A DNA stretch of 64,000 bases, taken from the NCBI RefSeq assembly GCF_035084215.1, contig NC_090325.1:194618001-194682000 (forward strand). The letters are read 5' to 3'. Under the pieces are notes generated by a model. The model was not told the origin of the DNA. It ran no database searches and saw nothing but the letters and a program-made list of their open reading frames with translations. Shown here piece after piece: positions 21,801 to 56,100 of the stretch (its first letter is position 1; every line of letters starts with the position of its first letter). The position numbers were made by a program, and so were the translations under genes. Origin of the DNA: Heptranchias perlo (Eukaryota).

Positions 21801-24800
21801 TTCAGGAACTGGGACCATGATACCAATAGATCGCTGACCCTGGTATCTGCTATTCTCTGCACCGAGAGCGTCCAGGGTGTTTGCAGGCATGGGCCACGCG
21901 TGAAGTTTAAACGAGTGTCACAGTTATCGAGCTCGTGGATGCCAACAGCTCTTGGGGTTCTGATTTGGGATTTATGCACCAATGAGGCAACACCATGAAG
22001 AACAGTCTTTCCCAAATCTCAACAAAACTCAAACAGGACAAAACAGCGAATGAGAAATGTAAACCAGAAATAGGACGGAGTTGCCTGGTCATTACGGGTC
22101 AGAGTGAGGGGCCCATCTCACTGCAGTGCTAGTATACAACAAGTAAAATAGGATGACTGCAGTTTTAAAAGCACAAAAAGCCTATTAGCGACACAGTACT
22201 GTAAATGCCTCTTTTATGATTTGGGGTCCAATTTGCTTCAAACAAACAGTCATCACTGAAAGGTTTCAGTTTTGACAAAAAGCAGAACTAGTAAATTTTT
22301 TTTTGTTTTGTCACACGACTGCACACAGCAAGGTCAGCACAGTCATGCGGAGAATGGCACGCAACACCGTCAATCAGATCACTCCTTGAGAATTCAGAAT
22401 TGTGCAAAATCCTGTTTCAGACACTGTTTCAAACCCTGGGCCCCAGTAAATAATTTCACTGCACTCTTTGCAAGTTATACAATTACTTTACAACAACTTG
22501 CATTCATACAGCACCTTTACTGTAGTAAAACGTCCCGAGGCGCTTCACAGGACCAATTATCAAACGAAATTTGACACCACGCCACGTAAAGAGATATTAG
22601 GACATGTGACCAAAAGCTTGGTCAAAGAGGTAGGTTTTAAGGAGTGTCTTCAAGGAGGAGAGAGAGGAGGAGGAGAGGCGGAGAGGGAATTTCAGAGCTT
22701 ACGTCCAAGGCAGCTGAAGGCACAGCCGCCAATGGTGCAGCGATGAAAATCAGGGAGGAGCGCAGAGATCTCGGCAGGTTGTAGGGCTGGAGAAGGTTAC
22801 AGAGATAGGGAGGGGTGAGGCCATGGACATAAGGATGAGAATTTTAAAATCGAGGCGTTCCCGGACCGGGAGCCAATGTAGGTCAGCGAGCACAGGGGGT
22901 GATGGGTGAACGGGACTTGATGTGAGTTAGGATACGGGGCAGCAGAGATTTGGATGAGCTGACGTTCACTAAACGTGGGTCATAAAGGAACTGAAGCCCA
23001 GAAATCACTGTTTGTACAAACATCTAACATGTTCCTATGACATTCCTCTCTCTCTGTGCGCTATGTTAACAGTGAGCCTAAACCCATTTTATTTTGAATA
23101 GGTTAATGCCTCTTTTAAAACAGCTGAGAGAGGAATGTCATAAGATGACGTCAAGCCATTGTACATTGATACTGCAAACAATAATTTCTCGGCTAAAATA
23201 CACTGCAATTAAAAAGATAAATCTTTCAATGTTCAAACCCAAATTATTTCCTCCCAGGGCTACACATCATTCCAACAAAAAGGCAATTGAGGCATCAGTC
23301 GTGGGTATCACTCTCACCTCTGAGTCAGAAGGTGGTGAGTTCAAGTCCCACTCCAGAGACTTCAGCACATTGCGCAAGCTGACACTCCCAGTACAGTGCT
23401 GCGGGAGCGCTGCGCCGGCGGAGGGGCCGCGCCGCGGGAGCGCGGACTGGCGGAGGGGCCGTGCTGCGGGAGCGCGGACTGGCGGAGGGGCCGCGCTGCG
23501 GGAGCGCCGCGCCGGCGGAGGGGCCGCGCCGCGGGAGCGCTGACTGTCGGAGGCCCCGCGCCGGCGGAGGGGCTGCCTTTAGGATGAGGTGTTAAACCGA
23601 GGCCCCGTGATTACATTTCAAAAGTACGTCATTGACTGTAAAGTGCTTTGGGACGTCCTGAGATTGTGAAAGACGCTATCGAAATGGAAGTCCTTTTTCT
23701 CTATTGATATTTTACAAAAGGTACTTTAAATACCTCTTTATGGTTTTCTAATTTGCTTATGATAGTCATCATTTAAAGGTTTCAGTTTTAACAAATAAAG
23801 GGGAAAAAGCAGAACCAGTATTTTTTTGTTTGTTTGTCAGGTGACTGCACGGATCAGCAATAATCAGCAGATTTGTGCGGAGAAACACACGAGATACTGT
23901 CAATGAGATCATCGTTTGAGAATTCAGAATTGCGTAAAACCTTGTTTCCGATACTGTTTGACCCCTGAGCCGAAATAACTAGTTGGGCTGCATCCTTTGC
24001 AAGTATGCTATTAATTAACCTCATTAAATATAAGAACATAAGAACATAAGAAATAGGAGCAGGAGTAGGCCAATCGGCCCCTCGAGCCTGCTCCGCCATT
24101 CAATAAGATCATGGCTGATCTGGTCCTAACCTCAAATCTAAATTCATGTCCAATTTCCTGCCCGCTCCCCGTAACCCCTAATTCCCTTTACTTCTAGGAA
24201 ACTGTCTATTTCTGTTTTAAATTTATTTAATGATGTAGCTTCCACAGCTTCCTGGGGCAGCAAATTCCACAGACCGACTACCCTCTGAGTGAAGAAGTTT
24301 CTCCTCATCTCAGTTTTGAAAGAGCAGCCCCTTATTCTAAGATTATGCCCCCTCGTTCTAGTTTCACCCATCCTTGGGAACATCCTTACCGCATCCACCC
24401 GATCAAGCCCCTTCACAATCTTATATGTTTCAATAAGATCGCCTCTCATTCTTCTGAACTCCAATGAGTAGAGTCCCAATCTACTCAACCTCTCCTCATA
24501 TGTCCACCCCCTCATTCCTGGGATTAACCGAGTGGTTATACATGGAATGGTTATACATCTAGCAGGACCTCTTAAGAAAGGCACTGGCAGTGTCATGAGA
24601 CCAAGAAAGAACTTGCATTTCTATAGCGCCTTTCACAACCTCAGGACGTCCTAAAGGGCTTTACAGCCAATGAATTACTTCTGAAGTGTGGACGCTTTTG
24701 TAATGTAGGAAACGCAGCAGCCAATTTGTGCACAGCAAGATCCCAAAAACAGCAATGTGATAATGAGCAGATAATCTGTTTTAGTGATGTCGGTTGTGGG

Positions 24801-36800: not shown

Positions 36801-39638
36801 CCTCAAAACTCAAGCACAGGTGACGCAAAGTAGCGTCTGATGTTTCTGATGTTTAGTAAAGGAGAGCAGCTCACCGAGATACGTTGAGGGCCAGCTGGCC
36901 GAGATAACCGGGAAACAGTTTCAGAACAAAACGGACAGATAGAGGTGGGAGATGGGCTTCACCGAAACCGACCAGGAACAATGAGACTTGTGAGGCAGCA
37001 GCAATCGAGGAACCATTTAAATTCTATGGCCCAGAATTTGTCGTCAAAATAACAGGGGAGACTAATGGCGCTCAGCCGTTATTTCTGGGTAAACGGTACC
37101 GTGACTTCAGGCGAGGGGCAGATGCGCGATTAAACGCGGAAATCCAAAAGTCGCTGTCTGAGATGTGCCGCGAGCTTCGCGAAAACGGCATCTCGCCGTC
37201 TGCCTCACCAGTGAAAAGCGTTGAACGGTGTGAAGCTGCTGTATTTGTGCGTTAGTTACGAACTAAACTCGCCACAGAAAGTTACGTCTTGTCGATTTCA
37301 AGACTAAGTACCCTTTTATCAATGTGGTAAGTGTTAATTACTGCCAGTCAACCTCCCTGGCACTGAAAATTAACTATTACAAAAGAGTGGAGTCTCATTC
37401 CTTCAGGTTTTAATTGTTGCAGATTTCTAAAAAAAAATTTAAATACAATTTTTTTAAAAAACTTTTCCGTTCTGTCTTTTTTCTCTCCCTTAATCCAGTC
37501 TTTCTTTCCCTCTCTTTATTTCTCTTTCTGTACCTGATTTGACATTGAATTCACCCACTCTAATTTACACTTCCTTCTCAGTCCTTGTGCTGTTTATTTC
37601 CCAATCCTTCAGTCTGATTGATTAAGGAGATACCCGGTTACTTGCCCTGTTCACTCAGGTCCCGAATGCCCTGTTTCCCTCACTGTGACGTTACCAGCTC
37701 GCACTTTCAGCAACTTACCATGCAAACAATCATGGACAATCCCAGCTTCTCCAGTCTCTCCACATAACTGAAGTCCCTCATCCCTGGTACCATTCTAGTA
37801 AATCTCCTCTGCACCCTCTCCGAGGCCTTGACATCCTTCCTAAAGCGCGGTGCCCAGAATTGTGTCTGGAGAAGCTGGGATTGTTCTCCTCAGAGCAGAG
37901 AAGGTTAAGGGGAGATTTAACAGAGATGTTCAAAATTTAAGGGTTTTGATAAGAGTAAACAGAATCATAGAATGGTCACAGCACAGAAGGAGGCCATTCG
38001 GCCCGTCAAGCCCGTGCCGACTCTCTGCAAGAGCAAGCCAGCTAGTCTCGCTCCCCCGCCCTATCCCCGTAACCCTGCACATTTTTTCCCTTCAAGTACT
38101 TATCCAGTTCCCTTTTGAAGGCCATGATTGAATCTGCCTCCACCACCCCCTCGGGCAGTGCATTCCAGATCATAACCACTCGCTGTGTAAAAAAGTTTTT
38201 CCTCATGTCACCGTTGGTTCTTTTGCCAATCACCTTAAATCTATGACCTCTGGTTCTTGACCCTTCCGCCAATGGGAACAGTTTCTCTCTATCTACTCTG
38301 TCTAGACCCTTCATGATTTTGAATATCTCTATCAAATCTCCTCTCGACCTTCTCTGTTCCAAGGAGAACAACCCCAGCTTCTCCAGTCTATCCACGTAAC
38401 TAAAGTCCCTCATCCCTGGAATCATTCTAGTAAATCTCTTCTGCACCCTCTCTAAGGCCTTCACATCTTTCCTAAAGTGCAGTGCCCAGAACTGGACACA
38501 ATACTCCAGTTGTGGCCAAACCAGCGTTTTATAAAGGTTCAACATGACTTCCTTGCTTTTGTTCTCTATGCCTCTATTTATAAAGTCCAGGATCCCATAT
38601 GCTTTTTTAACCTGCCCTGCCACGTTCAAAGATTTGTGTACATATACCCCCAGGTCTCTCTGTTCCTGTACCCCTTTTAGAGTTGTGCCCTATAGTTTAT
38701 ATTGCCTCTCCTCGTTCTTCCTACCGAAATGTATCACTTTACACTTTTCTACATTAAATTTCATCTGCCACGTGTCCGCCCATTCCACCAGCCTGTCTAT
38801 ATCCTCTTGAAGTCTATCACTATCCTCCTTCCTGTTCACTACCCTTCCAAGTTTTGAAATTGTGCCCTGTACACCCAAGTCCAAGTCATTAATATATATC
38901 AAGAAAAGCAGTGGTCCCAGCATTGACCCCCGGGAAACACCACTGTACACCTCCCCCCAGTCCGAAAAACAACCGTTCACCACTACTCTCTGTTTCCTGT
39001 TACTTAGCCAATTTTATATCCATGCTGCCACTGCCCCCTTTATTCCATGGGCTTCAATTTTGATGACAAGCCTATTATGTGGCACTTTATCAAACGCTTT
39101 TTGAATGTCTATATGCACCACATCAACTACACTGCCCTCATCGACGTTCTCTGTTACTTCATCAAAAAACTCAGTCAAGTTAGTTAAACATGATTTGTCT
39201 TTAACAAATAAAGAGAAACTATTTCCACTGGCAGAGGACACAGATTTAAGATAATTACCAGAGGGGGAGATGAGGAGAATTTTTTTTTAACGCAGTGAGT
39301 TGTTCTGATCTGGAATGCGCTGCCTGAAAGGGCGGTGGAAGCAGATTCAATAATAACTTTGAATTGGGCAGCTCGTTCAAAGAGCCGGCAGAGGCACGAA
39401 TGGCCTCCTTCTGTGCTGCACCATTCTGTGTTTCTAAAGAGCAATCTGATACATCTGAGAATGTTTCCGAATGATACAAAGTGATGCAAATCTGATACAT
39501 TGCAAATCTGATACATTGCAAATCTGATACATCAGTGACTGTATCAGGAGGGAGGGAGGGGAGCGCCTCCTCCTCCAACGGGGGGGGGGGGGGGGACATG
39601 CAGACAAGCAGCCGCCGCACTCACAATAAAAAGCTCAT
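15963..39638 (-). CDS. MOB1B: MOB kinase activator 1B, complete spliced CDS, 6 exons, 651 nt / 216 aa
   Basis: Exons 39625-39638, 30679-30845, 28550-28643, 20320-20453, 19357-19520, 15963-16040; GT-AG introns with consistent phases. [17 protein letters not shown]...KLTTKDR*, with T12 and T35 phosphosites retained. FGSRS, RMAVM and TDFCTEE are MOB1B-type; flanked by DCK and GRSF1. Confidence 0.96.
16607..16632. repeat. (TC)n microsatellite in MOB1B intron 5
   Basis: Direct reading. Confidence 0.9.
18377..19142. mobile_element. Non-autonomous DNA transposon (MITE-like) with ~15-bp imperfect TIRs
   Basis: Starts GGGCCAGAATTTGC and ends GCAAAATTATGGCCC; a second, 3'-truncated copy at ~37028-37728. 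Confidence 0.7.
19357..19520 (-). CDS. MOB1B: MOB1B exon 5
   Basis: [30 protein letters not shown]...KHFIFFVQ; 164 nt. Confidence 0.96.
20320..20453 (-). CDS. MOB1B: MOB1B exon 4
   Basis: [44 protein letters not shown]; 134 nt. Confidence 0.96.
24030..24533 (-). mobile_element. CR1 LINE 3' fragment
   Basis: ORF 24144..24596; (TTCTTATG)n tail. Confidence 0.9.
25090..26016 (-). mobile_element. CR1 LINE 3' fragment
   Basis: ORF 25251..25763 [13 protein letters not shown]; ADDTK at the 5' end. Confidence 0.9.
28550..28643 (-). CDS. MOB1B: MOB1B exon 3
   Basis: [31 protein letters not shown]; aag| acceptor, |gtgcgt donor; 94 nt. Confidence 0.94.
30679..30845 (-). CDS. MOB1B: MOB1B exon 2
   Basis: [55 protein letters not shown]; 167 nt. 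Confidence 0.96.
37736..39430. mobile_element. Compound CR1: plus-strand copy with inverted 5' part, split by a nested minus-strand CR1
   Basis: Inverted part 37736-37863; sense part 37866-37959 resuming at ~39206-39430; nested minus CR1 at ~37960-39205 (ORFs 38042..38629, 38690..38983, 39014..39241). Confidence 0.82.
39625..39638 (-). CDS. MOB1B: MOB1B exon 1 coding part (MSFLF)
   Basis: gccATGAGCTTTTTATT|gtgagt, 14 nt, at the edge of a GC/CpG-rich region. Confidence 0.92.
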
Positions 39639-39639
39639 G

Positions 39640-39960
39640 GCCTCATCCGGGGGGACTTAGGACCCGGCGACAACCCGTGGAACGCGGCCCCGGGATGACG
39701 ACACAATGGGGGGGGATTCTACCAGCCTGGAGCTCGTGCCGCTCCCGGTGCTCCCGGTCCCGGTCCTGGTGCCGCTCCTCTTCCTGCTCCTGCTCCTGGT
39801 GCTGCTGCTGCTGCTCCTCCTCCCGGTCCCGGTGCCGCTCCTCCTCCTCCCGGTTCTGGTGCCGTTCCTGCTCTTCCTGATGTGCGGATCCGCTCCACTC
39901 GCGAGATTGCCGCCGACCTTCCGCTCACCTCCAGTCAGGCAGCTCCTGCTGCAAAAAAAA
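39640..39960 (-). promoter_or_regulatory. MOB1B CpG-rich 5'UTR and promoter
   Basis: GC/CpG-rich with CAG, GAG and CCGGGA low-complexity runs; a 9/10 match to the TCTCGCGAGA (BANP-type) promoter motif at 39897-39906. Confidence 0.7.
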
Positions 39961-41000
39961 ACCCCTTCACCCGCACCACGCACTCAATTCAATGTTAATA
40001 ACACAAAATGTACAGCGGGTCCCGGCACCTGGATCTGTACAGGAAGAAAACAGAGAGGGTCAATTACTGATCGAAATCTACCGCAAATCAAAATACAATG
40101 TGATGTAAGTTTCATTACATTCTGAATACAACTTTATTCAATCAGTTGATAAAACCATTTCTCAGTTTTGGGTGGACGCCCTTGTTCAGAACACGTTGTG
40201 TAATTTTATTATTCCCACTTTTACAGATGTAAACTGTTGGACTATAACCTGATGTAAGATTCCTTACATTGGTCCACCCCAGTCCATCACCGGCATCTCC
40301 ACATCACCACTTTTACAGAGGTTGACTGACCTGCTGTGCAATTCCAGCATTTTGTGCGGTTATTTTCAGCTTTTTACATTTTTTTCTTTTATTATCCTGA
40401 ATGAATGAAACCAGGGAACATGTAGTTCTTGCTATCGGACTAACATGATAATGTTTAATAAACAAAAGAGTTTGCATTTATAAAGCTTTTAAATCACGTC
40501 CTCGGGACATTCCAAAGCGGTTCATAACCCTTGGATTACTTTTGAGATACAATCACCGATGCCATGCAAGAAAACACAGCAGCAATTTGCACAAACATTA
40601 AATGAGATGTGTTAAGTTTTTTTTGGTGGTGTTGGTTGAGTGCACTCTCGGAGAACTCGCTGCCCTTTCAACAATACCATGGGATCGATTAGGTGCACCT
40701 ATAAAGACGGACTTCCAGTTTCTCATTACTCTGACGATGCAGCACTCATTCCCATTACTGTGTCAGCCTAGATTGTGTGCTCGATTCCTGAAGAGGGGCT
40801 TGCATAAAGCAAGCAGGCAACTTTGCGACTCACAATTGCTTCGTAATATCAGAAGGTCTAAATTAACTTGTAAAATACTGACTGTAACGTTTATTCATTG
40901 AAACGTGGAATTTCCACAGTCCTGCAGGAGGACGTGAATGTTGAAACGTGTATTATCTCCATGCGCTGTGAGGTGGTGCTGTGCAGGTATGTCAGTGTGT

Positions 41001-42402
41001 ACACTGCCAGCACCAGTTGGTGTCCGTCTCAGTGCGTCCCCGGGAACAGCCCGTAGAGCACAGAGTCCTGTGTTACGGAACTGCTCGGGACGAACCTGGA
41101 CAGATACCACTGCATCTCTCTCCAGACCTTCTTTGCAAAGGCACATTCCAGAAGGAGATGGGTGACGGTCTCGTCTCCACCGCAGCCTCCTCGGGGACAG
41201 TGCGCGGTGGCGCTGAGACGCGGGGAGTGCATGAAGGATCTGACGGGAAGGGCCCTTCTCACCACCAGCCGAGCTATGTCTTGGTGCTTGTTTGAAAGCT
41301 CTGGCGATGAGGCGTTCTGCCAAATGACATTGAAAGTCTGCTCAGAGAACCAACCGCCAGGATCCACCATCTCCTTTTCCCGCAGGGTCTCGAGGACGTT
41401 ACGTGCGAACCACTTACTGATCGCCTTGTGGTCAAAGGTGTTTTTCTGCACAAACTTTTCCCCGAAGGAAAGATGGGGCGGAACAGTCCAACTGGATGGA
41501 GCGTTCCGTGGCAGCATGGCCGGGCCCATCCTTCACAACACTAGGGACAGGTAGAACCTCAGCACGTAGTGACACTTTGTGTTTGCACACCGAGGGCCCA
41601 TGCACAGCTTGATGCAGCCGCACACAAAGGTGGCCATCAGGATGAGGGCCACGTTGGGCATGCCTGGCCCCCTCTCTCTGGAGATTTGTACATCGTGTCC
41701 CTGCGGACACCATCCATTTTTGATCTCCAAACAAAGTGGAAGATGGCTCGGGTGACTGTCGCGGCGCAGGAGCGAGGTATGGGCCAGACCTGCGCCACGT
41801 ACAGCAACACCGAGAGCACCTCGCACCTGATGACAACTCGGTGAAAGATGCCCTTTGGTCTGCCCGAAACTTGCTGGTCTTCCTGTAAAAGGAGCTGTCC
41901 TCGACCGAGTGTTGCAGACTGGAACTTTCTAAGGTCCAGGACTACGTGCTCAGGGACGCAATGAGACTGGATGCGGCCGCCGCAAAGGCTCTGTGGGGAA
42001 AGGCAACCATTTAGAGCCTTCCCGCCATTGTATACCGAGGGGATGCAATCAGGGAAAACCCCCCCGGGCAGAATGTAAAATTCAAACTGATATAATGAAA
42101 TGTAATGCACCTGTAATGACTCTGTAATGAATCATCTGTATTGATTGTGATGCAATGAGGCACCCTAGAGTGTCGTGAACTGTAATTATGTACAATGTGT
42201 TCATTGAACTGTATTTGATGTAACCTGCAAATTGTATAATCTGTATTGTGTATGTTTGGACCTGACGAAGGAGATAATCTCCGAAAGCTTGTGATTTTCA
42301 AATAAAACTGTTGGACTATAACCTGGTGTTGTAAGATTCCTTAGAACTGTATTGTATGTATTGCTGCAAATTTTATGAATAAAGTATATTTTTTGAAAAA
42401 AA
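41001..42402 (+). mobile_element. Tx1/L1-clade non-LTR retrotransposon, 5'-truncated and 5'-inverted
   Basis: 41005-41834 (minus) encodes ORF2 C-terminal region with a zf-RVT-like motif CPRGGC..ETVTHLLLEC. From 41835 (plus) it continues NSVKDALWSARNLLVF...WGKATI*, then a 3'UTR, AATAAA and A-tail. TSD GTATGTCAGTGTGT at 40987-41000 and 42403-42416. Confidence 0.9.
42257..42343 (+). mobile_element. Penelope-like terminal-repeat fragment with hammerhead-like core, nested in the Tx1 3'UTR
   Basis: CTGACGA-aGGAGataatCTCC-GAAA-GCTT; the downstream ctgttggactataacctg..gtaagattcctta also occurs at ~40230-40267. Confidence 0.6.
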
Positions 42403-42423
42403 GTATGTCAGTGTGTGCATTGT

Positions 42424-43812
42424 CTCCAGTGCTGCAGGTGGCGCTGTGTGTGGAGGTCTGGGCATGGCCTCCAGTGCTGCAGATGGCGCTGTGGGCGGAG
42501 TTCTGGGCACGGCCTCCAGTGCTGTAGGTGGCGCTGTGTGTGGAGGTCTGGGCACGGCCTCCAGTGCTGCAGGTGGCGCTGTGTGTGGAGGTCTGGGCAC
42601 GGCCTCCAGTGCTGCAGGTGGCGCTGTGGGCTGAGGTCTGGGCATGGCCTCCTGTGCTGCAGGTGGCGCTGTGTGTGGAGGTCTGGGCATGGCCTCCAGT
42701 GCTGCAGGTGGCGCTGTGTGTGGAGGTCTTGGCACGGCCTCCAGTGCTGCAGGTGGCGCTGTGTGTGGAGGTCTGGGCACGGCCTCCAGTGCTGCAGGTG
42801 GCGCTGTGTGTGGAGGTCTGGGCACGGCCTCCTGTGCTGCAGGTGGCGCTGTAGGCGGAGGTCTGGGCACGGCCTCCTGTGCTGCAGGTGGCGCTGTGAG
42901 TGGAGGTCTGGGCACGGCCTCCAGTGCTGCAGGTGGCGCTGTGTGTGGAGGTCTGGGCACGGCCTCCAGTGCTGCAGGTGGCGCTGTGTGTGGAGGTCTG
43001 GGCATGGCCTCCAGTGCTGCAGGTGGCGCTGTGTGTGGAGGTCTGGGCACGGCCTCCAGTGCTGCAGGTGGCGCTGTGTGTGGAGGTCTGGGCATGGCCT
43101 CCAGTGCTGCAGGTGGCGCTGTGTGTGTGGAGGTCTGGGCACGGCCTCCTGTGCTGCAGGTGGCGCTTTATTTGGAGGTCTGGGCACGGCCTCCAGTGCT
43201 GCAGGTGGCGCTGTGGGCGGAGTTCTGGGCACGGCCTCCAGTGCTGTAGGTGGCGCTGTGTGTGGAGGTCTGGGCACGTCCTCCAGTGCTGCAGGTGGCG
43301 CTGTGGGCGGAGGGTGGTGAGGCCTCTAGTGCTGCAGGTGGCGCTGTGGGCGGAGGTCTGGGCACGGCCTCCTGTGCTGCAGGTGGCGCTTTATTTGGAG
43401 GTCTGTGCACGGCCTCCTGTGCTGCAGGTGGCGCTGTGTGTGGAGGTCTGAGCACGGCCTCCAGTGCTGCAGGTGGCGCTGTGTGTGGAGGTCTGGGCAC
43501 GGCCTCCAGTGCTGCAGGTGGCGCTGTGGGCGGAGTTCTGGGCATGGCCTCCAGTGCTGTAGGTGGCGCTGTGTGTGGAGGTCTGGCCACGTCCTCCAGT
43601 GCTGCAGGTGGCGCTGTGGGCGGAGGGTGGTGAGGCCTCCTGTGCTGCAGGTGGCGCTGTGGGCGGAGGTCTGGGCACGGCCTCCAGTGCTGCAGGTGGC
43701 GCTGTGGGCGGAGGTCTGTGCACGGCCTCCTGTGCTGCAGGTGGCGCTGTGTGTGGAGGTCTGGGTACGGCCTCCTGTGCTGCAGGTGGCGCTGTGGGCG
43801 GAGGGTGGTGAG
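42424..43812 (+). repeat. 45-bp GC-rich minisatellite, 31 units, in the GRSF1 promoter region
   Basis: Unit GGCACGGCCTCCAGTGCTGCAGGTGGCGCTGTGTGTGGAGGTCTG; 31 cores counted by hand. Confidence 0.97.
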
Positions 43813-43918
43813 TCCCCGGCTCGCCGGCTGCTGTGTGACCGTGTCGATGGGCTGTGTGTGAGGGGAGCTCGCTGCTGGCGGCGGTGAGCGATTCGGTCCG
43901 AGGTCTGATCCGGTCTCC

Positions 43919-44107
43919 ATGGCCGTCAGCTGCAGGGTCGGGGTCTTTCTCAATCTCCGTGCCCTGTCCCGGGCCTACAGTTACTCGGCGGCCGGTAGCT
44001 TCAGGCCCTGCTTCCCCTTAGTGTCAGTGAAGGAGCCGCAGGCCCGGAGCTGGGCCTCGGCGTTGAGTAAAGTGAGGACGGTGCTTCATCCCCGTTATTC
44101 GCATCAG
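43919..44107 (+). CDS. GRSF1: GRSF1 exon 1 (putative mitochondrial targeting presequence)
   Basis: [23 protein letters not shown]...PRYSHQ|gtgag; phase 0 matches exon 2; basic and nearly free of acidic residues. Confidence 0.82.
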
Positions 44108-47100
44108 GTGAGAAGCTGCAAGCGCAAAAACTGAGTCTAAATCCAGACATTCAGACCGTGCATTGATCGCACGACCGAATAATGCAAATATATAAATACA
44201 GGAATATAAATACACATAAATACAAATAGTACATGTGTAGATACATATAAATACACATAATGTGTATCCTAAAATATATTCAGTTACTAATTATATATAT
44301 AAATATACTGGCATTTCATATATAATTATATATAGTTATATGAGCCCTATATAATATATATACTGTATACATTTAATATAATATAGGCTGGGTATATAAC
44401 TACAACCACTTGCCTTTATCCAGCACCTTTAACATTGTAAAATGTCCCAAGGCGCTTCACAGGAGCGATTATCAAACTAAATTTAATACCGAACCACATC
44501 AGGAGATATTCGGACAGGTAAAAGGAATGTCTTAAAGGAGGAGAGAGAGGTGGAGAGGTTTAGGGAGGGAATTCCAGAGCTTAGGGCCTAGGCAGCTGAA
44601 GGCACGGCCGCCAGTGGTGGAGCGATGGAAATCGGGGATGTGCAAGAGGCCAGAATTGGAGGAGCTCAGAGATCTCGGAGGGCCGTAGGGCTGGAGGAGG
44701 TTACAGAGATAGGGAGGGGCGAGGACATGGAGGGATTTGAAAATAAGGATGAGAATTTTAAATTGAGGCGTTCATCTATACATCGGTCAGCGAGCACAGG
44801 GTTGATAATTTAGTATATTGATGCTTATTGTCATAGAAACACTGGGGAATGATAATGGATCCTGCTCGCCGTTGACTTCTGTGGAGCGGCCTCTCAGGGC
44901 CCTTCGCCCATCTGACGAATTGTGGACATCATACCATCTCCAGAAGCATCTCCTCCCAGCCCACTTGATTGTATCGTGTGAACTCCAGGGCTCCCTCCAT
45001 CCTTAGTCTTCTCTTCACCATTTGTACTCGTTCCCCTCGCCAATATCGTCTGCAGTCAACGTCCGTGTGTAACACGCAGTTCTGTCTTTCTGTCCTCCTT
45101 TGGTACCGTTGGCAATCTTTCCGATTACTTGCCTCCCACATTAAGACCCTGCGGGGATGATTCACGATTCCCTCCAGCTTAATGTTGGTCGAACCGAAAG
45201 CCACAAGCTCCAACGTAACTTCAACCCTCTTCATCAACTTCCCACCCTGTCACCTCAGCTTGAGCCCAGAGGTGTGGAATCTTGTTATAGTACATGATCC
45301 CTGAGCTCAGCTTCTACCCTGTTATCCACTCCCATTACCGAGATTGCCTTCGTCTACCTCCGAAACAGAGCCCCCGATTTCTCTCTCTCTCTGCTGTTAA
45401 AATCCTAATCCATGCCTTTAATACCTCAAAGCTAATTTTTTTTCCTCGTGCCTCCCCGCTTTCACCTTCCACCAACTACAACTCATTCAGAATGCCGCAT
45501 TCAGTGTCTTCATCTGTACAAAGGTCCACGCCCCTCTGTCCACTGATGCCCGGCCCAGTGCTCCATGGAATCGACTTTAAGGTCCTTGTCTTTGCCTTCA
45601 CATCCTTTCCTGATCTCACTCCACCCAACTTAGGGATCGTTCTCCACCCATGCACATCTGTGCGCAGGCTCAATTCCTCCGATAGCAGCTCACCAATCGC
45701 CCCCAGCTGCAGCAACAACAGTTGCCCCTTCCAAACTATGCCCATTAAAAAAAAGCATCCAATTATTTGCCTAACATGGAATAGACAGAATGCAAGAGGG
45801 AGAACTGTGAGTGGTGATCCACCTCCAACTCAACGTTGATGAAGAGAATTCATGCACAGTTTGATTGTTTGTGAGTTTTTGGGCCGGCCTAGTTGGAGAA
45901 CAGGCCTGTCCATCGCAGCATTGCTCAGTAAGCTTGGCACTGTCTTTGACTCACATATCAGCCTCGAGCCCAACATTCTAGCCGTTACCCTGACTGCATA
46001 TTTCTACCTCCATTATATTGCCCACTTCTGCCCCTACCTTACCCCACTGCTGCCCAAACACTTATTCATGCCTTCACCGCCTCCAGACTAAATTTCGCCA
46101 AAAGCCCTTCTGATCAGCCTTCTGCTGTCTGTAATCTCCAAATCGTCCAAATGTCTGCTCCCAGCATCCTGTTCTGCATTAAAGTCTTGTTTGAGCATTG
46201 TCATGGACCTCGCTGACCGACATTGACTCCCAGTTCCCAACAGATCAATTTAAAATCCTCCCCCCTCATCTGCAAGTCCCTCTGTAGCTTTATCCCCTCC
46301 CCCCCCCACACCCACCCGCCCGCCCACCCAACCTCCTTCACCCTAACGTGCCCGCCAGTCCTCTCACTCCCTTCTCACCATCCTCCCCTTGGTGTTTTTT
46401 CCAAAGAGTACAATTCATTCCTTACTAAGCTATCCATTGTAAGCTCAGTTCTGTTTCACTTGCTTTAATTTGATAGGAGGTGTTAAACAAAATGACTGAG
46501 ATGTGAGGTACTTGAGAAATGAGTGAAATATTACTGCGCCCTTCAGAGTGTTACCAGGACCGAAACTGAACCCTGTTCGTCAAAAGGGACTAAGCTTCTG
46601 GGACAGCGTGCCGTTTTGTAATACACTTGGTTGGTTGGCTAACAGCCTGGCACGCCTTAGGCAGCGTTGCTATTTATTCCTCGTTTGATGCGCTAGAATT
46701 TGTTGTGTCGACAGTGACCGCTCACGGTGTTTTATTGTGCTCATTGTTCCTTGTTTTTTTTTAAAATCTCACGCAGGAGACGTCCCACCCTTTCCGAGAC
46801 GAAGAATATCCCCCACTTCCTGACTATGACCCAACTCCATTAGAAATGGAGGGCAACACGGTGTTCGTTGTGAGGGCACGTGGCTTGCCTTGGTCCTGTT
46901 CTGCGGAAGACGTGCTGGGCTTTTTCTCGGGTATGGTATTTTCTAAAGTCTAGACGTGCTTTGGATTACTTCTTTCTCCCTCGAGACTGGTTTATGGAGG
47001 GAGGTGTTACAAAGCTGAGCTGAGAAGTGTGCGATGACCCTCTGTGCTCGCTGACCTACGTTGGCTCCTGGTCCACCAACGCCTCAGTTTCAAAATTCTG

Positions 47101-50100
47101 GCCTCGCCCCCCCCCCTCCCTACCTCCGTAACCTCCTCCAGCCCGACAACTCTCCGAGATCTTTGCGCTCCTCCAATTCTGGCCACTTGTCCATCCCCCA
47201 CTTCCATCGTTCCACCATTGGCGGCCGTGCCTTCAACTGCCTAGGTCCTAAGCTCTGGAATTCCCTCCCTAAACCTCTCCACCTCTCTCTCCTCCTTTAA
47301 GATGCTGCTTAAAATTGCACTTCAAATATTTATCCACTGTTCCTTTAAAAGATGCAATGGTCTCTACTTCAACCACTTACCTTGGCAAAATATCCAAAAT
47401 TCCCAAAGGGTAGTTGAGGCGAATAGCATAGATGCATTTAAGGGGAAGCTCGATAAACACATGAGGGAGAAAGGAATAGAAGGATATGCTGATAGGGTGA
47501 GATGAAGTAGGGAGGGAGGAGGCTCATGTGGAGCATAAACACCGGCCGAATGGCCTGTTTCTGTGCTGTAAATTCTATATAATTCTAATAAGACTTTACG
47601 TGAATAAATTTCTCCTAATCTTAGTCCTAGCGCTTCTTGAGACTATTTTGAAATGGTGATCTCATATCACCAAGAGCATCCCCATTATTGAGAATTTTAT
47701 ATATTTAAAGAAAACAAAACAAGATCAGGAGTCACTGAACAGACTAAGCACTTACGTAATACTTACCGGAGAACTCAATTAGACCTGTGTCCTGTCACTT
47801 AACCTCTTGCATGCTAATGTCCTCCAGTCATCAATGTGAATTTGCAAGTGATGTGCTGCTATCCATGCTAAATGTGAATCAGCTCGGTTAAATTATATAG
47901 ACTTATTAATTTTTGATCTGATAATCAGAAGTTGTCCTGCCAACTTTCCTGTGGTCTTTGTTGAAGATTTCGATGAGTTGCTTCTATTTTACTTCAGTTT
48001 GCCGTGCGTGAATAATGTTGTGCAGAATGTGTACACTTGTCACATCAAACACATAGGAACAGGAGGAGGCCATTCAGCCCCTCGAGACTGTTCGGCCGTT
48101 CAGTTAGATCATAGCTGATCCGTATCTGATCTGACTCTCCCACCAGAGGAAATAGTTTCTCTCTCTCTCCCATATCAAATCCTTAAATTATCTTAAACAG
48201 CTCAACTAGGTCACACCGTAATCTTGTAAACTCAAGGGAATATAAGTCAAATAAGTGTCGCACCAAGTCCCGTTCTCCCATCACCCCCTGTGCTCGCTGA
48301 CCTACACTGGCTCCCGGTCCGGGAACGCCTCGATTTTTAAAATTCTCATCCTTGTTTTCAAATCCCTCCATGGCCCTCGCCCCCTCCCTATCTCTGTAAC
48401 CTCCTCCAGTCCTACAACCCTCCGAAATCTCTGAGCTCCTCCAATTCTGGCCTCTTATGCATCCCTGATTTTCATCGTTCCACCATTGGCGACCGTGCCT
48501 TCAGCTGCCTAGGCCCCAAGCTCAGGAATTCCCTCCCTAAACCTCTCCGCCTCTCTACCTCTCTCTCCTCCTTTAAGACACTCCTTAAAACCTACCTCTT
48601 TGACCAAGCTTTGGTCACCTGTCCTAATATCTCCTTTTGTGGCCCAATGTCAGATTTTCCTGTGAAGCGCCTTGGGACATTAAAGGCGAGTGACTCACCT
48701 CCTGACTCCCCAAAGCCTTTCCACCATCTACAAGGCACAAGTCAGGAGTGTGATGGAATACTCTCCACTTGCCTGGATGAGTGCAGCTCCAACAACACTC
48801 AAGAAGCTCGACACCATTCAGGACAAAGCAGCCCGCTTGATTGGCACCCCATCCACCACCCTAAACATTCACTCCCTTCACCACCGGCGCACTGTGGCTG
48901 CAGTGTGTACCATCCACAGGATGCACTGCAGCAACTCGCCAAGGCTTCTTTGACAGCACCTCCCAAACCTGTGACCTCTACCACCTAGAAGGACAAGAGC
49001 AGCAGGCGCATGGGAACACCACCATCTGCACATTCCCCTCCAAGTCACACACCATCCCGACTTGGAAATATATCGGCCGTTCCTTCGTCGTCGCTGGGTC
49101 AAAATCCTGGAACTCCCTTCCTAACAGCGCTGTGGGAGAACCGTCACCACATGGACTGCAGTGGTTCAAGAAGGCGGCTCACCACCACCTTCTCCAGGGC
49201 AATTAGGGATGGGCAATAAATGCTGGTCTCGCCAGCAATGCCCACATCCCAAGAACGAATAAAAAAAAAACATAAATGCAAGTTGTTGTTAGCAAACTGA
49301 GAACCTAATATGATGTGAACCTATCACGGTACACTTTTTAAGATGGCACAGAAATGTGTTGACCCTGAGATTGAAGAATTGCCATGTTACTCCCAACCAG
49401 TCATTAATGATACGCACATATACATTTTTATATATATATAATTTACCTGTGTTGTGTTGAATCCATTTTACTTGCTGTAGATTATTTTGAGAGGATGATC
49501 TAATGCCCTGTTCGATGTGGATCTAATGCCCTGTTCCATGTGGATCCAATGCCCTGTTCGATGTGGATCCAATGCCCTGTTCCATGTGGATCCAATGCCC
49601 TGTTCCATGTGGATCCAATGCCCTGTTCGATGTGGATCCAATGCCCTGTTCCATGTGGATCCAATGCCCTGTTCCATGTGGATCCAATGCCCTGTTCCAT
49701 GTGGATCCAATGCCCTGTTCGATGTGGATCCAATGCCCTGTTCCATGTGGATCCAATGCCCTGTTCGATGTGGATCCAATGCCCTGTTCCATGTGGATCC
49801 AATGCCCTGTTCCATGTGGATCTAATGCCCTGTTCCATGTGGATCTAATGCCCTGTTCGATGTGGATCGAATGCCCTGTTCCATGTGGATCGAATGCCCT
49901 GTTCCATGTGGATCCAATGCCCTGTTCGATGTGGATCCAATGCCCTGTTCCATGTGGATCCAATGCCCTGTTCCATGTGGATCCAATGCCCTGTTCCATG
50001 TGGATCCAATGCCCTGTTCCATGTGGATCCAATGCCCTGTTCCATGTGGATCCAATGCCCCGTTCCATGTGGATCCAATGCCCTGTTCCATGTGGATCCA

Positions 50101-53100
50101 ATGCCCTGTTCCATGTGGATCCAATGCCCTGTTCGATGTGGATCCAATGCCCTGTTCCATGTGCATCCAATGCCCTGTTCCATGTGCATCCAGTGCCCTG
50201 TTCCATGTGGATCCAGTGCCCTGTTCCATGTGGATCCAGTGCCCTGTTCCATGTGGATCCAGTGCCCTGTTCCATGTGGATCCAGTGCCCTGTTCCATGT
50301 GGATCCAGTGCCCTGTCGCATGTGGATCCAGTGCCCTGTCGCATGTGGATCCAGTGCCCTGTCCCATGTGGATCCAATGCCCTGTCCCATGTGGATCCAA
50401 TGCCCTGTCACTTGGAATGGGGCCATGTTTTAAATTTGCATTTGTCCTTTTTCCTGTATTAGATTGCGGCGTTGTGAATGGTGTTAAAGGCGTGCACTTC
50501 CTATGCACAAGAGGTGGCAAGCCAAGCGGGGAAGCGATTATTGAACTCCAGTCTGCGGAGGATATTAAGAAAGCTCTAGAAAAGGACAGAAAATACATGG
50601 GGCAGCGTTACATCGAAGGTACATTGACAGTGAACTCCAAAATACCGCATCCCAAAAGCCTGCTGTTCTCCTGTAGAATCACTGAATGATACAGCACGTA
50701 AGGAGGCCATTTGGCCCATCGTGTCTGTGCCGGCTTTTTGAAAGAGCTATCCAATTAGTCCTACTTCCCCTCCCCCTCCCCTTCCTCTTAGCCCTGCAGA
50801 TTTTTTCCCTTTAAGTATTTACATCTAATTCCCTTTTGAAAGTTATTATTGAATCTGCTTCCACCGCCCTTTCAGGCAGCGCATTCCAGATCATAACATC
50901 TCGCTGCGTAAAAAAAAAAATCTCCCATCTTGCCTCTGATTCTTTTGCCAGTTACCTTAAATCTGTATCCTCTTGTCACTGACTCGCTGGTAAAAACAAC
51001 AACAATCTAATGTGTTCTGGAATTTTAAAGTTAACAGTCCCCAGACGGGCCCTAGTGCAGTCTAAAGCCTTTATAAAATGGGAAATACTATACTAAAGTT
51101 CAGAGGTGCACCCCTGTTATAGTGAGCTGTCATTAAGCGGTGGTGTACCAGTTCTGAACCCTGGTACGTGGCAGAGTCTCCATGTGTTGGCACTGGCCCC
51201 GGTGTTTGTTACTGTTTGTTGTCACAGTCCCGAGGGACTGAGTGCAGTTGTGCCTGTTCCCGTCCCTGGGGAAAGGAGGGGGGGGGGTGGTAAATAAGGT
51301 AAGATCCAGAAGGCTCTGTGAGGAGAGAGAGATGGGACGTAAAGAGTTTTGCAGTTGCTGACTTGTATAATTGTTTGACCTACATTGGATCCCGGTCTGG
51401 GAATGCCTCAATTTTAAAATTCTTGCTTTTATTTCCTGTGTTCTAATGGTCTCCCCTCTTGCGCATCCCCGATTTTAATCGCTGCACCATTGGCGGCCGT
51501 GCCTTCAGCTGCCTAGGCCCTAAGCTCTGGAATTCCCTCCCATACCTCTCCGACTCTCAACCCCTCTCTCCTCCTTTAAGACATTCCTTAAAACCTACCT
51601 CTTTGACCAAGCTTTTGGTCACCTGTCCTAATATCTCCTTATCTGACTCATTGTCACATTTTGTTTGACAGTCGCTCCTGTGAAGTGCCTTGGAAGGTTT
51701 TGCTACATTAAAGATGCGGTGTAAATGCAAGTTGTTATAAACACACACTGTCCTGATACATGTCCAGAAGACCCCCGTTACTTGATGCTTTTACATGGGT
51801 TTTCATGCTCAATAGGAACAAGCAAAAATTGTTTTTAAGAGCTTAATATTTAGCAACATCGGCAGCGGTAAGAAGACCTGTTTTCTGTTTTACGAGCTGA
51901 CCTACTCTTCAGATATTGTTGGCTTTGTTCAATTTGCACTGAGATGCGAGCGAAAAATAAATCTTAGTGTCAGCCGTGGCTCGGTGGGTAGTACACTCGC
52001 CTCTGAGTCAGAAGGTTGTGGGTTCAAGTCCCCCTCCAGAGACTTGAGCTCCAAATCCAGGCTGACACTCCCAGAGCAGTACTGAGGGAGTGCTGCACTG
52101 TTGGAGGTGCTGTCTTTCAGATGAGACATTAAACCGAGGACCCGTCTGCCCCCTCGGGTGATGTAAAGATCCCACGGCCACTATTTCGAAGAAGAGCAGG
52201 GGAGTTCTCCCCGGTGTCCTGGGGCCAATATTTATCCCTCAATCAACTAAAAAACAGATTATCTGGTCATTATCACATTGCTGTTTGTGGGATCTTGCAG
52301 TGCGCAAATTGGCTGCCGTCTTTCGTACGTTACAACAGTGACTACGCTTCAAAAGTACTTCATTGGTTGTAAAGCGCTTTGGGACGTCCTGAGGTTGTGA
52401 AAGGTGCTGTAGAAATGCAAGTTCTTTTTCTAGCTTTAGAAACAGCTGAATAGAAGGACATGCTCTTCTCTCCTACCCTTAGGTTTCCAAGTGTCACTCA
52501 CCTACCGATAGGTTGCATGTTCCACCGTCCCTGCTAATGGGCTGTTCGTCTGTCCATCAGCAGTGAAATGGAGAGGAAAAAAACGTATATTTATTCGGGC
52601 CTTTCGCAACCGTAGGACATCCCAGAGCGCTTTACAGCCAATGATGTGCATTTTTTTTTGAAGTGTAGTCACTGTTGTAATGCAGGAAATGCGGCAGCCA
52701 ATTTGCGCACAGCAAGATCCCACAAACAGCAATGTGATAATGACCCAGATAATCTGTGTTTTTTATTGATGTTGGTTGAGGGATAAATATTGGCCAGGGC
52801 ACCGGGGAGAACTCCCCCTGCTCTTCGAAATAGTGGCCGTGGGATCATTTATATCCACCTGAGGGGGCAGGTGGAGCCTCGGTTTAACGTCCGAAAGAGA
52901 TAAACCAAAACTCCTTTACTCAGAGAGTGGTGAGAATGTGGAACTCGCTACCACAAGGAGTAGTTGAGGCGAATAGCATAGATGCACTTAAGGGGAAAGC
53001 TAGATAAACACATGAGGGAGAAAGGAATAGGAGGATATGCTGATAGGGTGAGATGAAGAGGGGAGGGAGGAGGCTCATGTGGAGCATAAATACCAGCATG

Positions 53101-56100
53101 GACCTATTAGGCTGAACAGTCTGTTTCTGTGCTGTGCATTCTATGTAATAGGTTTCAGTTATAACACCAGCCCAATTCTCACATCAGTATCAGTATCGAA
53201 ATAAACTTCAGCTTCAAAGTAGCTCAGTCTCTGAGATAGAATAGAATCATAGAAGTTACAACATGGAAACAGGCCCTTAGGCCCAACATGTCCATGTCGC
53301 CCAGTTTATACCACTAAGCTAGTCCCAATTGCCTGCACTTGGCCCATATCCCTCTATACCCATCTTACCCATGTAACTGTCCAAATGCTTTTTAAAAGAC
53401 AAAATTGTACCCGCCTCTACCACTGCCTCTGGCAGCTCGTTCCAGACACTCACCACCCTTTGAGTGAAAAAATTGCCCCTCTGGACCCTTTTGTATCTCT
53501 CCCCTCTCACCTTAAATCTATGTCCCCTCGTTATAGACTCCCCTACCTTTGGGAAAAGATTTTGACTATCTACCTTATCTATGCCCCTCATTATTTTATA
53601 GACTTCTATAAGATCACCCCTTAACCTCCTACTCTCCAGGGAAAAAAGTCCCAGTCTATCTAACCTCTCCCTATAAGTCAAACCATCAAGTCCCGGTAGC
53701 ATCCTAGTAAATCTTTTCTGCACTCTTTCTAGTTTAATAATATCCTTTCTATAATAGGGTGACCAGAACTGTACACAGTATTCCAAGTGTGGCCTTACTA
53801 CTGTCTTGTACAACTTCAACAAGACATCCCAACTCCTGTATTCAATGTTCTGACCAATGAAACCAAGCATGCCGAATGCCTTCTTCACCACCCTATCCAC
53901 CTGTGACTCCACTTTCAAGGAGCTATGAACCTGTACTCCTAGATCTCTTTGTTCTATAACTCTCCCCAACGCCCTACCATTAACGGAGTAGGTCCTGGCC
54001 TGATTCGATCTACCAAAATGCATCACCTCACATTTATCTAAATTAAACTCCATCTGCCATTCATCAGCCCACTGGCCCAATTTATCAAGGTCCCGCTGCA
54101 ATCCTAGATAACCTTCTTCACTGTCCACAATGCCACCAATCTTGGTGTCATCTGCAAACTTACTAACCATGCCTCCTAAATTCTCATCCAAATCATTAAT
54201 ATAAATAACAAATAACAGCGGACCCAGCACCGATCCCTGAGGCACACCGCTGGACACAGGCCTCCAGTTTGAAAAACAACCCTCTACAACCACCCTCTGT
54301 CTTCTGTCGTCAAGCCAATTTTGTATCCAATTGGCTACCTCACCTTGGATCCCATGAGATTTAACCTTATGTAACAACCTACCATGCGGTACCTTGTCAA
54401 ATGCTTTGCTGAAGTCCATGTAGACCACGTCTACTGCACAGCCCTCATCTATCTTCTTGGTTACCCCTTCAAAAAACTCAATCAAATTCGTGAGACATGA
54501 TTTTCCTCTCACAAAACCATGCTGACTGTTCCTAATCAGTCCCTGCTTCTCCAAATGCCTGTAGATCCTGTCCCTCAGAATACCCTCTAACAACTTACCC
54601 ACTACAGATGTCAGGCTCACCGGTCTGTAGTTCCCAGGCTTTTCCCTGCCGCCCTTCTTAAACAAAGGCACAACATTTGCTACCCTCCAATCTTCAGGCA
54701 CCTCACCTGTAGCTGTCGATGATTCAAATATCTCTGCTAGGGGACCCGCAATTTCCTCCCTAACCTCCCATAACGTCCTGGGATACATTTCATCAGGTCC
54801 CGGAGATTTATCTACCTTGATGCGCGTTAAGACTTCCAGCACCTCCCTCCCTGTAATATGTCCACTCCTCAAGGTTAACGCGGATATATCAGCGCTGAGC
54901 TGTATTGCTTTAACACTTTCCCACCTTCACTATTATTTCCCATTTCTCTTTTGTTATCCTCTTTCCCCATAGGAATTAAACTCTCTCCTTACATGTTGTG
55001 GTGGAGCAAACTGCTGTATTTCAGTGGGGATTTAAATTTTAAACCCCACGTGTCACCAAATGTGTATGAGCAGTGCAGTACCACTGGACTGATGATGTGC
55101 TTTGTTCTGAATGTGGGGAATAACAACAGCCAGCCTCTGATTTCCTTCCAAACTGTGACACGATGCCTGTTTGCTTTATTTTAGAAGCATTTGCAGGTTT
55201 TGTTGTGGTTATGTCAGGGTGTTCTGCACATATTTCCTTCGCTCCACCATTGACGGCCGCGCCTTCAGCTGCCTAGGCTCTACGCTCTGGGATTCCCTCT
55301 CTAAACCTCTCCGCCTCTCTACCCCTCTCTCCTCCTTAAAACCTACCTCTTTGACCAAGCTTTTGGTCACCTGTCCTAATATATCTCCTTATATGGCTCG
55401 GTGTCAAATTTTATTTGTTAATCGCTCCTGTGAAGCGCCTTGGGACGTTTTACTGCGTTAAAGGCGCTGTATAAATGCGAGTTGTTGTATAAAGCACTTC
55501 AACTGGTAGCACATATAAATGTTGGCCTTGCCAGCGACCCCACATCTCATGAACGAATGAAAAAAAAACATTAGAGCAACAGCACAAGAACCTTGTTTTC
55601 CGTGCCCCTGGTCTCCTCCTGAGCTCCTGATCTCTGCTGAGTGGATGCAGGGAAGCACTGAGCAGACCCGTTTCTGTACTGCTCTCCTTGTAACCAACCA
55701 ACGGGGCGGTGTCTGGGGGAGCACGCTGCCTGTTTTCGGGGCGACATAGGGAAACCAAATTGATGAGAGAGAAAAGTAAGGGAAATAAAAAGAGCACGCA
55801 AAGTGGAGGCAATATATTTAAATAATTTTCTTTTAAGTATAACTCTCGCAAGAGAAAGTTAAAATAACCAAACTTTTTCTCTCTTTTGCCTTAGTGTTCG
55901 AGCTAAGTAGCAGTGATGTGGACACCCTTCTGAAGCGTCTCCATTCTAGTGAGAAGGAACTGACTGACGGCAGTGTTGTGCGTCTGAGGGGGCTGCCGTT
56001 TAGCTGCACCGCGGAGGAAATCAATCGTTTCTTTGAGGGTTTGTTGATATTTTCTGTGTACTCTTGTCGATTCTTGATGCATCATTCACTGCCTGCGTTC

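Follow-up and report, generated by a model that had tools for sequence, protein, structure and literature searches.

The window analysed here, a stretch of 64,000 nucleotides from contig NC_090325.1 of the Heptranchias perlo assembly GCF_035084215.1, holds two divergent genes with a tandem array between their first coding bases. GRSF1 lies on the plus strand: its first coding exon, of 63 codons (43919..44107, donor at 44108), is identical to the N-terminus of the named H. perlo GRSF1-like protein P0002, and a further exon (46777-46929) matches this protein with 100% identity and the GRSF1 of other sharks and rays with 75-82%. The minus strand carries a Mob1 exon and a deoxycytidine kinase exon (89.7 bits for DCK vs. 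63 for DGUOK), and the first coding bases of the Mob1 gene lie at 39625..39638, with an ATG at 39638 that is divergent from GRSF1. We take this gene to be MOB1B from its synteny with the neighbouring DCK. Directly ahead of GRSF1 exon 1 is a unique, CpG-rich 5′ flank or leader (43817..43918, plus strand), and ahead of that a 45-bp minisatellite of 31 units (42424..43816, plus strand), in which positions 8-22 of each unit form a CTCF-like core of 15 bp. About 100 bp separate the end of the array from the GRSF1 ATG, and 2.8 kb lie between the array and the MOB1B ATG; an earlier note on this DNA had put about 110 bp between array and GRSF1 ATG, in agreement with an ATG at 43919, which is 107 bp past the end coordinate used there. 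No description of the locus was found in the literature searched, the coverage of which is thin for sharks and for these genes and excludes most subscription journals.

Other repeats were seen in and around the two genes. On the MOB1B side, a 27-bp repeat of three copies (39784-39877) lies in the probable 5′ leader; its best CTCF score, on the minus strand, is 7.1 bits. The near-palindromic word CTCGCGAG is found in the region of 39897-39906, upstream of the ATG. We presume that this word resembles a BANP/Kaiso-type promoter motif. A GC-rich array of five 32-bp copies (23401-23563) lies inside a SINE in an intron of MOB1B, and several other SINE copies of the window match its flanks. On the GRSF1 side, a second minisatellite (49497-50408), with about 40 copies of a 23-bp unit at 96% matches, stops just ahead of a GRSF1 exon at about 50470-50620. 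This exon is skipped by the shark protein P0002 and also by the Narcine isoform P0009, so the skip need not stem from the 23-bp array. A minus-strand open frame of 535 residues in a GRSF1 intron (53319-54926) resembles, by eye, a CR1-type LINE reverse transcriptase.

The 45-bp array was described in the earlier note as 31 co-oriented motifs, and a pattern search recovered all 31 of the 31 units on the plus strand (42424-43816). Core-to-core spacing is 45 bp in 27 of the 30 intervals, 43 bp in two and 47 bp in one, and TRF reported a period of 45, 30.7 copies and 91% matches. Elsewhere in the window there were no further copies of the core at up to two mismatches and two copies at three. The 13 bases that precede unit 1 (42411-42423) look like unit tails and overlap by 6 bases the right copy of a target-site duplication described below, so the repeat register may begin within that duplication.

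Within the core, C>T occurs in three units (3, 19 and 26) and G>A in one (unit 2), which are the counts given earlier; they represent two events rather than four, because each C>T unit is preceded by one identical variant unit. Units 18-21 and 25-28 are identical at 174 of 178 bases, and this block match, taken with the shared unit that precedes the C>T units, makes the copies non-independent. The GC box GGGCGGAG was likewise found as reported, in 9 of the 31 units with 8 of these in units 18-31, but the block duplication inflates this skew. Head-to-tail units in the 10-60 bp range, variant repeats and block duplications are the features of a VNTR, here on the one allele sequenced, and they show that the array grew by duplication of units and of blocks.

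The core had also been thought less variable than the rest of the unit. For the pre-set 15-bp core this held, with 2 of 19 substitution alleles inside it against 6.3 expected (p = 0.024), and for the 19-bp span of the matrix the value was 4 of 19 (p = 0.047); it did not hold post hoc, in that some 15-nt window as clean as the core arose in 6311 of 20000 simulations. The commonest unit type retains the core and has lost the 3′ half that resembles the ray sequence described below. The CpG observed/expected ratio of the array is 0.43, which is not island-like, and that of units 1-17 is 0.38, in comparison to 0.86 for 43817-44107.

The CTCF match was evaluated with an unconfirmed copy of the JASPAR matrix MA0139.1, the counts of which were not found in print. 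With this matrix, all 31 units scored 11.1-14.3 bits on the plus strand (p = 5e-6 to 3e-5, hence all at p ≤ 1e-4). Beyond the array, eight single sites in the window reached p ≤ 1e-4, the highest at 11.1 bits, and the best scores in the window's three other arrays were -5.8, 0.7 and 7.1 bits. The units thus exceed the score threshold of 8 used in a study of the skate, an animal reported to have ctcf, cohesin and oriented CTCF motifs at TAD borders (PMC10115646). The match is of moderate grade: the unit score was reached by 24 of 5000 mononucleotide shuffles and 71 of 5000 dinucleotide shuffles. The claim of the earlier note that the unit matches the CTCF core is borne out for 31 of 31 units at p ≤ 1e-4 with this unconfirmed matrix, at moderate strength.

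The bases of the unit were read with the finger-to-base map given in PMC10484683. The triplets of ZF3-ZF6 fit within the unit, whereas that of ZF7 is imperfect: C2 is present, but at core position 3, where the map expects a purine, all 31 units have T. The A>T change at this position had been regarded as tolerated; it falls in the ZF7 triplet and lowers the score. The upstream base pair of the high-affinity class (T at -12, C at -10) was found in 1 of 31 units, or in none of the 31 if moved by one position, and a downstream GAG at positions 19-21 was found in 0 of 31, which places the array outside that class. FIMO alone was a poor predictor of CTCF sites at the human Hox loci (PMC5504073). 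Each unit is called here a predicted CTCF site of moderate affinity, and we regard occupancy by CTCF as somewhat more probable than not.

It had further been suggested that the CpG in each core could make binding methylation-sensitive. This CpG is at core positions 12-13 in 31 of 31 units, and a CpG at positions 2-3, which marks the methylation-sensitive class of sites, is present in 0 of 31. According to PMC10484683, CTCF binding is sensitive to methylation at C2 and insensitive to it at C12, so a methylation switch is unsupported as a direct readout of the core CpG. The core CpG is kept in 31 of 31 units, and the CpG at unit positions 42-43 has become TG in 6 of 27.

Other readings of the unit were tried. 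For a SINE origin, the 15 best of 12498 tiles included three SINE copies, but an equally good alignment was obtained with 447 of 1000 shuffled units, and this candidate was rejected; the flanks stood at 12 and 2 of 200 mononucleotide shuffles, a weak signal with no SINE position tied to it. A protein-coding unit was rejected because the reading frame common to shark and ray is not that of the shark ATG and runs into a stop, and the long open reading frames that cross the array are a by-product of the 45-bp period. Searches for RNA genes gave 0 Rfam hits and 0 tRNAs, and the G-quadruplex signal was weak (mean G4Hunter score 0.48, best window 1.32).

The age of the module was evaluated by comparing ten named proteins, among which the manta ray isoform P0008 alone is extended; the ray DNA is known through its codons only. 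P0008 has 68 extra residues ahead of the conserved start, which read through what is upstream DNA. As to its residues 18-29, they fit three units of the array with 3 changes in 36 bases, eight more units including unit 31 with 4 changes, and 30 of the 31 units with no more than 6, whereas the best of 125026 positions outside needs 9. The ray-profile score was 31.7 bits in the array vs. 12.6 outside it, and 0 of 2000 shuffled peptides reached the score of residues 18-29. The ray element is 153 nt from the ATG and shark unit 31 is 148 nt from it, and ray residues 51-68 have their best match directly ahead of the shark ATG (24.2 vs. 12.1 bits); the similar distance and this adjoining match indicate that the region is orthologous. 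The module of unit 31 (43772..43805, plus strand; core 43779-43793) is accordingly taken as the positional orthologue of the ray element, with 24 of 28 codon-fixed positions in agreement.

The sole difference that the ray codons force on the core is at core position 9, a position that ZF5 leaves variable (PMC10484683), and the T at core position 3, off the CTCF consensus, is common to ray and shark. The CTCF score attainable by the ray window was 18.1, the highest of 21 sampled windows of the extension (next, 10.5); 6.5% of its 9216 possible codings score at least 8, and the coding closest to the shark scores 9.2-11.6 bits. The likeness spans about 34 bp and so extends past the core. Agreement was 24/28 in the module vs. 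28/45 in the spacer (p = 0.036) and vs. 34/39 in the ATG-proximal part of the flank (p = 1.0), for one ray and at codon level.

Second copies were not found at significance in the 204 nt of ray flank: residues 31-41 failed the shuffled-peptide control (185 of 2000), though they beat all 125036 outside positions, and residues 2-12 failed it too (191 of 2000). Among 1004 candidate proteins the extension was carried by one, P0008 itself, which leaves one outgroup. These results bear out the proposal of a tandem amplification of one module from the promoter region, since the ray has one significant copy at a like distance from the ATG; the single copy that might be expected at the orthologous site of another chondrichthyan thus appears to be present in the manta ray, for one ray and at codon level. 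The GC box had been counted as part of the amplified module and the unit had been said to contain an E-box; neither is compatible with the codons of the ray copy, and both were rejected as conserved signals. An ETS site in the ray is given by one of 8 possible codings. The divergence of the shark and ray lineages, at the base of the elasmobranchs, dates to about 250-290 million years ago (bioRxiv 10.64898/2026.02.13.705779). By this comparison, the array is very probably, in descent, a lineage-restricted amplification of an old module of the GRSF1 promoter or 5′ flank.

A LINE lies between the array and the MOB1B promoter side. Its target-site duplication has a left copy at 40987..41000 and a right copy at 42403..42416 (plus strand), the two identical at 14 of 14 bases and being the only two occurrences of the 14-bp word in the window; the right copy follows a short A tail and ends 7 bp ahead of unit 1. 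Between them are an inverted piece of ORF2 (zf-RVT; 41001..41837, minus strand) with one frameshift, corresponding to residues 103-371 of P0033, a named shark relative, and a forward piece (41835..42402, plus strand) consisting of the ORF2 C-terminus (P0033 residues 384-442), the 3′ region and the short A tail. The pieces join at 41835-41837, and at the protein level they share 85-87% identity with a further copy from the same species. A duplication that encloses two mutually inverted pieces with a small internal gap is the structure of a twin-primed (5′-inverted) LINE. As in the twin-primed elements of PMC2837659, opposite pieces of one LINE, a target duplication and an A tail are present; those are primate L1 elements, whereas this is a zf-RVT family common to sharks. 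Within the 3′ region, 39 bp (42305-42343) are 90% like a repeat at 40231-40266 and are possibly a nested element, in which case the LINE would have a greater age than one would suppose from its perfect target duplication.

The 30 bases to the left of the left duplication (40957..40986, plus strand) are unit-like and in register, and they are read as a displaced upstream piece of the promoter and a diverged relative of the unit: 0 to 1 of 11346 sampled positions scored as well. A blind nhmmer search for diverged units in the window gave nothing significant (E = 3.6 for this piece). Its match to ray residues 1-17 was modest, with 2 of 866 sampled positions as good; for the flank left unjoined, ray residues 1-13 were matched as well by 21 of 126032 positions, and ray residues 1-16 by 308. 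When the LINE and 30 units were removed, the whole ray extension scored 55.8 bits, compared to 40.5 for the intact locus and a null maximum of 7.9, the spans compared being 194 and 204 nt. The match of the left-flank piece to the ray sequence upstream of the module and the gain in score on joining the flanks suggest that the LINE landed within the ancestral GRSF1 promoter region, probably cutting off its upstream part. The distance between the MOB1B and GRSF1 ATGs would have been about 1.5 kb before both events and is now 4.3 kb. Further to the left, 40914..40956 (plus strand) may be another diverged unit relative, weakly matched (2 of 1680 for its first 22 bases and 448 of 17828 for the unit as a whole). 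In 40898-40950, left of the displaced piece, a 10-base word repeats 43 bp apart, and the unit lying further left of this repeat gave no alignment to the array consensus.

We lean towards a reading in which the array is a promoter minisatellite that forms a candidate clustered CTCF platform. One module of the promoter region very probably became the array through unit and block duplications, and CTCF would bind several units at once, with moderate affinity and partial occupancy. Such a platform would have a single orientation, sit at a housekeeping promoter and point into GRSF1, and methylation of the core CpG would leave it active. Insulation by tandem CTCF sites is independent of orientation and looping is directional, according to PMC7087399; given the orientation of the cores, stalled loops, if there are any, would extend to the GRSF1 side. 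The expansion was probably driven by mutation and tolerated, and an insulating effect, if any, would probably be a by-product. At motif level, the array has the composition of a clustered CTCF site, with at least two motifs within tens of bases of each other near a promoter. Against the platform stand the moderate score, the unconfirmed matrix, the T at core position 3, the one outgroup at codon level, a module conserved no better than the ATG-proximal flank, the low CpG ratio of the array, and the presence in the window of minisatellites that have no CTCF match.

A rival reading is that of a neutral passenger, an array derived from the promoter flank that is methylated or nucleosomal and has no useful CTCF binding, with only unit 31 and the unique flank acting as the promoter. 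We consider this unlikely but of appreciable probability. The moderate score with its two 5′ mismatches, the post hoc non-significance of core cleanliness, the low CpG ratio of units 1-17 beside that downstream, and the poor performance of FIMO alone at the human Hox sites are all in its favour, as is the unrelated array of 40 23-bp copies in GRSF1, which likewise has long invariant stretches. It accounts less well for a core CpG intact in every unit, for a commonest unit type that kept the core while losing the ray-like 3′ half, and for a core that differs from the ray at a free position only. Should CTCF prove not to bind it, the array would be a minisatellite of the ordinary kind at a promoter, and a warning against calling motif arrays insulators. 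An element for some other factor, transcribed or part of the core promoter, is a doubtful proposition. In this case the array would lengthen the leader or feed an alternative first exon through a donor at 43808, and it is equally doubtful that the alternative-first-exon version would yield a GRSF1 lacking the mitochondrial leader. The module is part of the ray gene model and may thus be transcribed, conservation extends over about 34 bp, beyond the core, and 7 upstream ATGs lie in the array; the heptamer GGTGAGT at 43807, one of 7 on the strand, supplies the consensus donor, and human GRSF1 isoform 2 has an alternate 5′ exon and is non-mitochondrial (PMC3593211). The donor is, however, unmatched at the aligned ray position, the named shark reference P0002 begins at the conserved ATG, and neither the E-box nor the GC box stands up to comparison with the ray.

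A selected insulator or loop anchor, in which CTCF sites part GRSF1 from MOB1B or from the LINE and copy number tunes the strength, is improbable in our judgement, if a little less so than the other-factor element. It would fit an array that begins 7 bp from the target duplication of the LINE and has 31 sites in a single orientation, and tandem CTCF sites insulate either way round (PMC7087399). The module is nevertheless older than the LINE, as the ray indicates, and was therefore not born as a shield against it; a single allele cannot order insertion and expansion; the ATGs were once about 1.5 kb apart, so close packing was tolerated; and the proposed methylation switch is on the wrong cytosine. 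We give the same small credence to compensatory rebuilding, in which the LINE would have split an ancient elasmobranch head-to-head promoter and the one CTCF-like module left on the GRSF1 side would then have expanded 31-fold at the site of the break; it is just as hard to credit that the result is a methylation-tolerant CTCF wall, the copy number of which sets the protection of GRSF1 from the LINE and its uncoupling from MOB1B. Were this true, the locus would be a natural titration of CTCF site number at 45-bp spacing against barrier strength, and related species would reveal cause and order.

CTCF sites are usually held to spread by way of transposons. Here, a conserved module of the promoter region very probably multiplied in place by minisatellite growth, and its single-copy state is still visible in the ray. 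If bound, the array would allow a compact test of how barrier strength depends on site number and of whether an insertion prompts arrays to grow. Repeat-borne spread of CTCF sites through transposons is described for the lamprey (PMC5504073).

Among known systems, many co-oriented sites are also found in the Pcdh and Igh CTCF arrays (PMC7087399), but those are large loci of tested function, and here the packing is at 45 bp. The DXZ4, ICCE and FIRRE loci (PMC6125249) are likewise tandem repeats in which the conserved part is a short CTCF-containing stretch; they differ in having kilobase units, in being X-linked superloop anchors and in being tandem across species, whereas the shark array has a 45-bp unit, a length of 1.4 kb and one significant copy in the ray, and so does not fall among the macrosatellites. 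Closer in scale are the 2xCTS sites (PMC4562119), clustered CTCF motifs that mark active promoters at a spacing of 30-40 bp: in both cases a promoter has same-strand motifs about 30 bp apart (the gap from core to core is 30 bp in the shark), with two or a few motifs there and 31 candidate sites here. The CTCF/BORIS-bound VNTRs (PMC5007689), a study that reports 171 CTCF-bound simple tandem repeats forming cluster sites, share with the shark array a short GC-rich unit, the repetition of which builds a cluster of CTCF motifs. They were identified by ChIP in human cells with BORIS, whereas the shark array is described at motif level; unlike them, it carries a full 15-bp core in each unit and is traced to a conserved module of the promoter region. 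By analogy, the shark array would, if bound, work like these CTCF-bound VNTRs or the 2xCTS sites.
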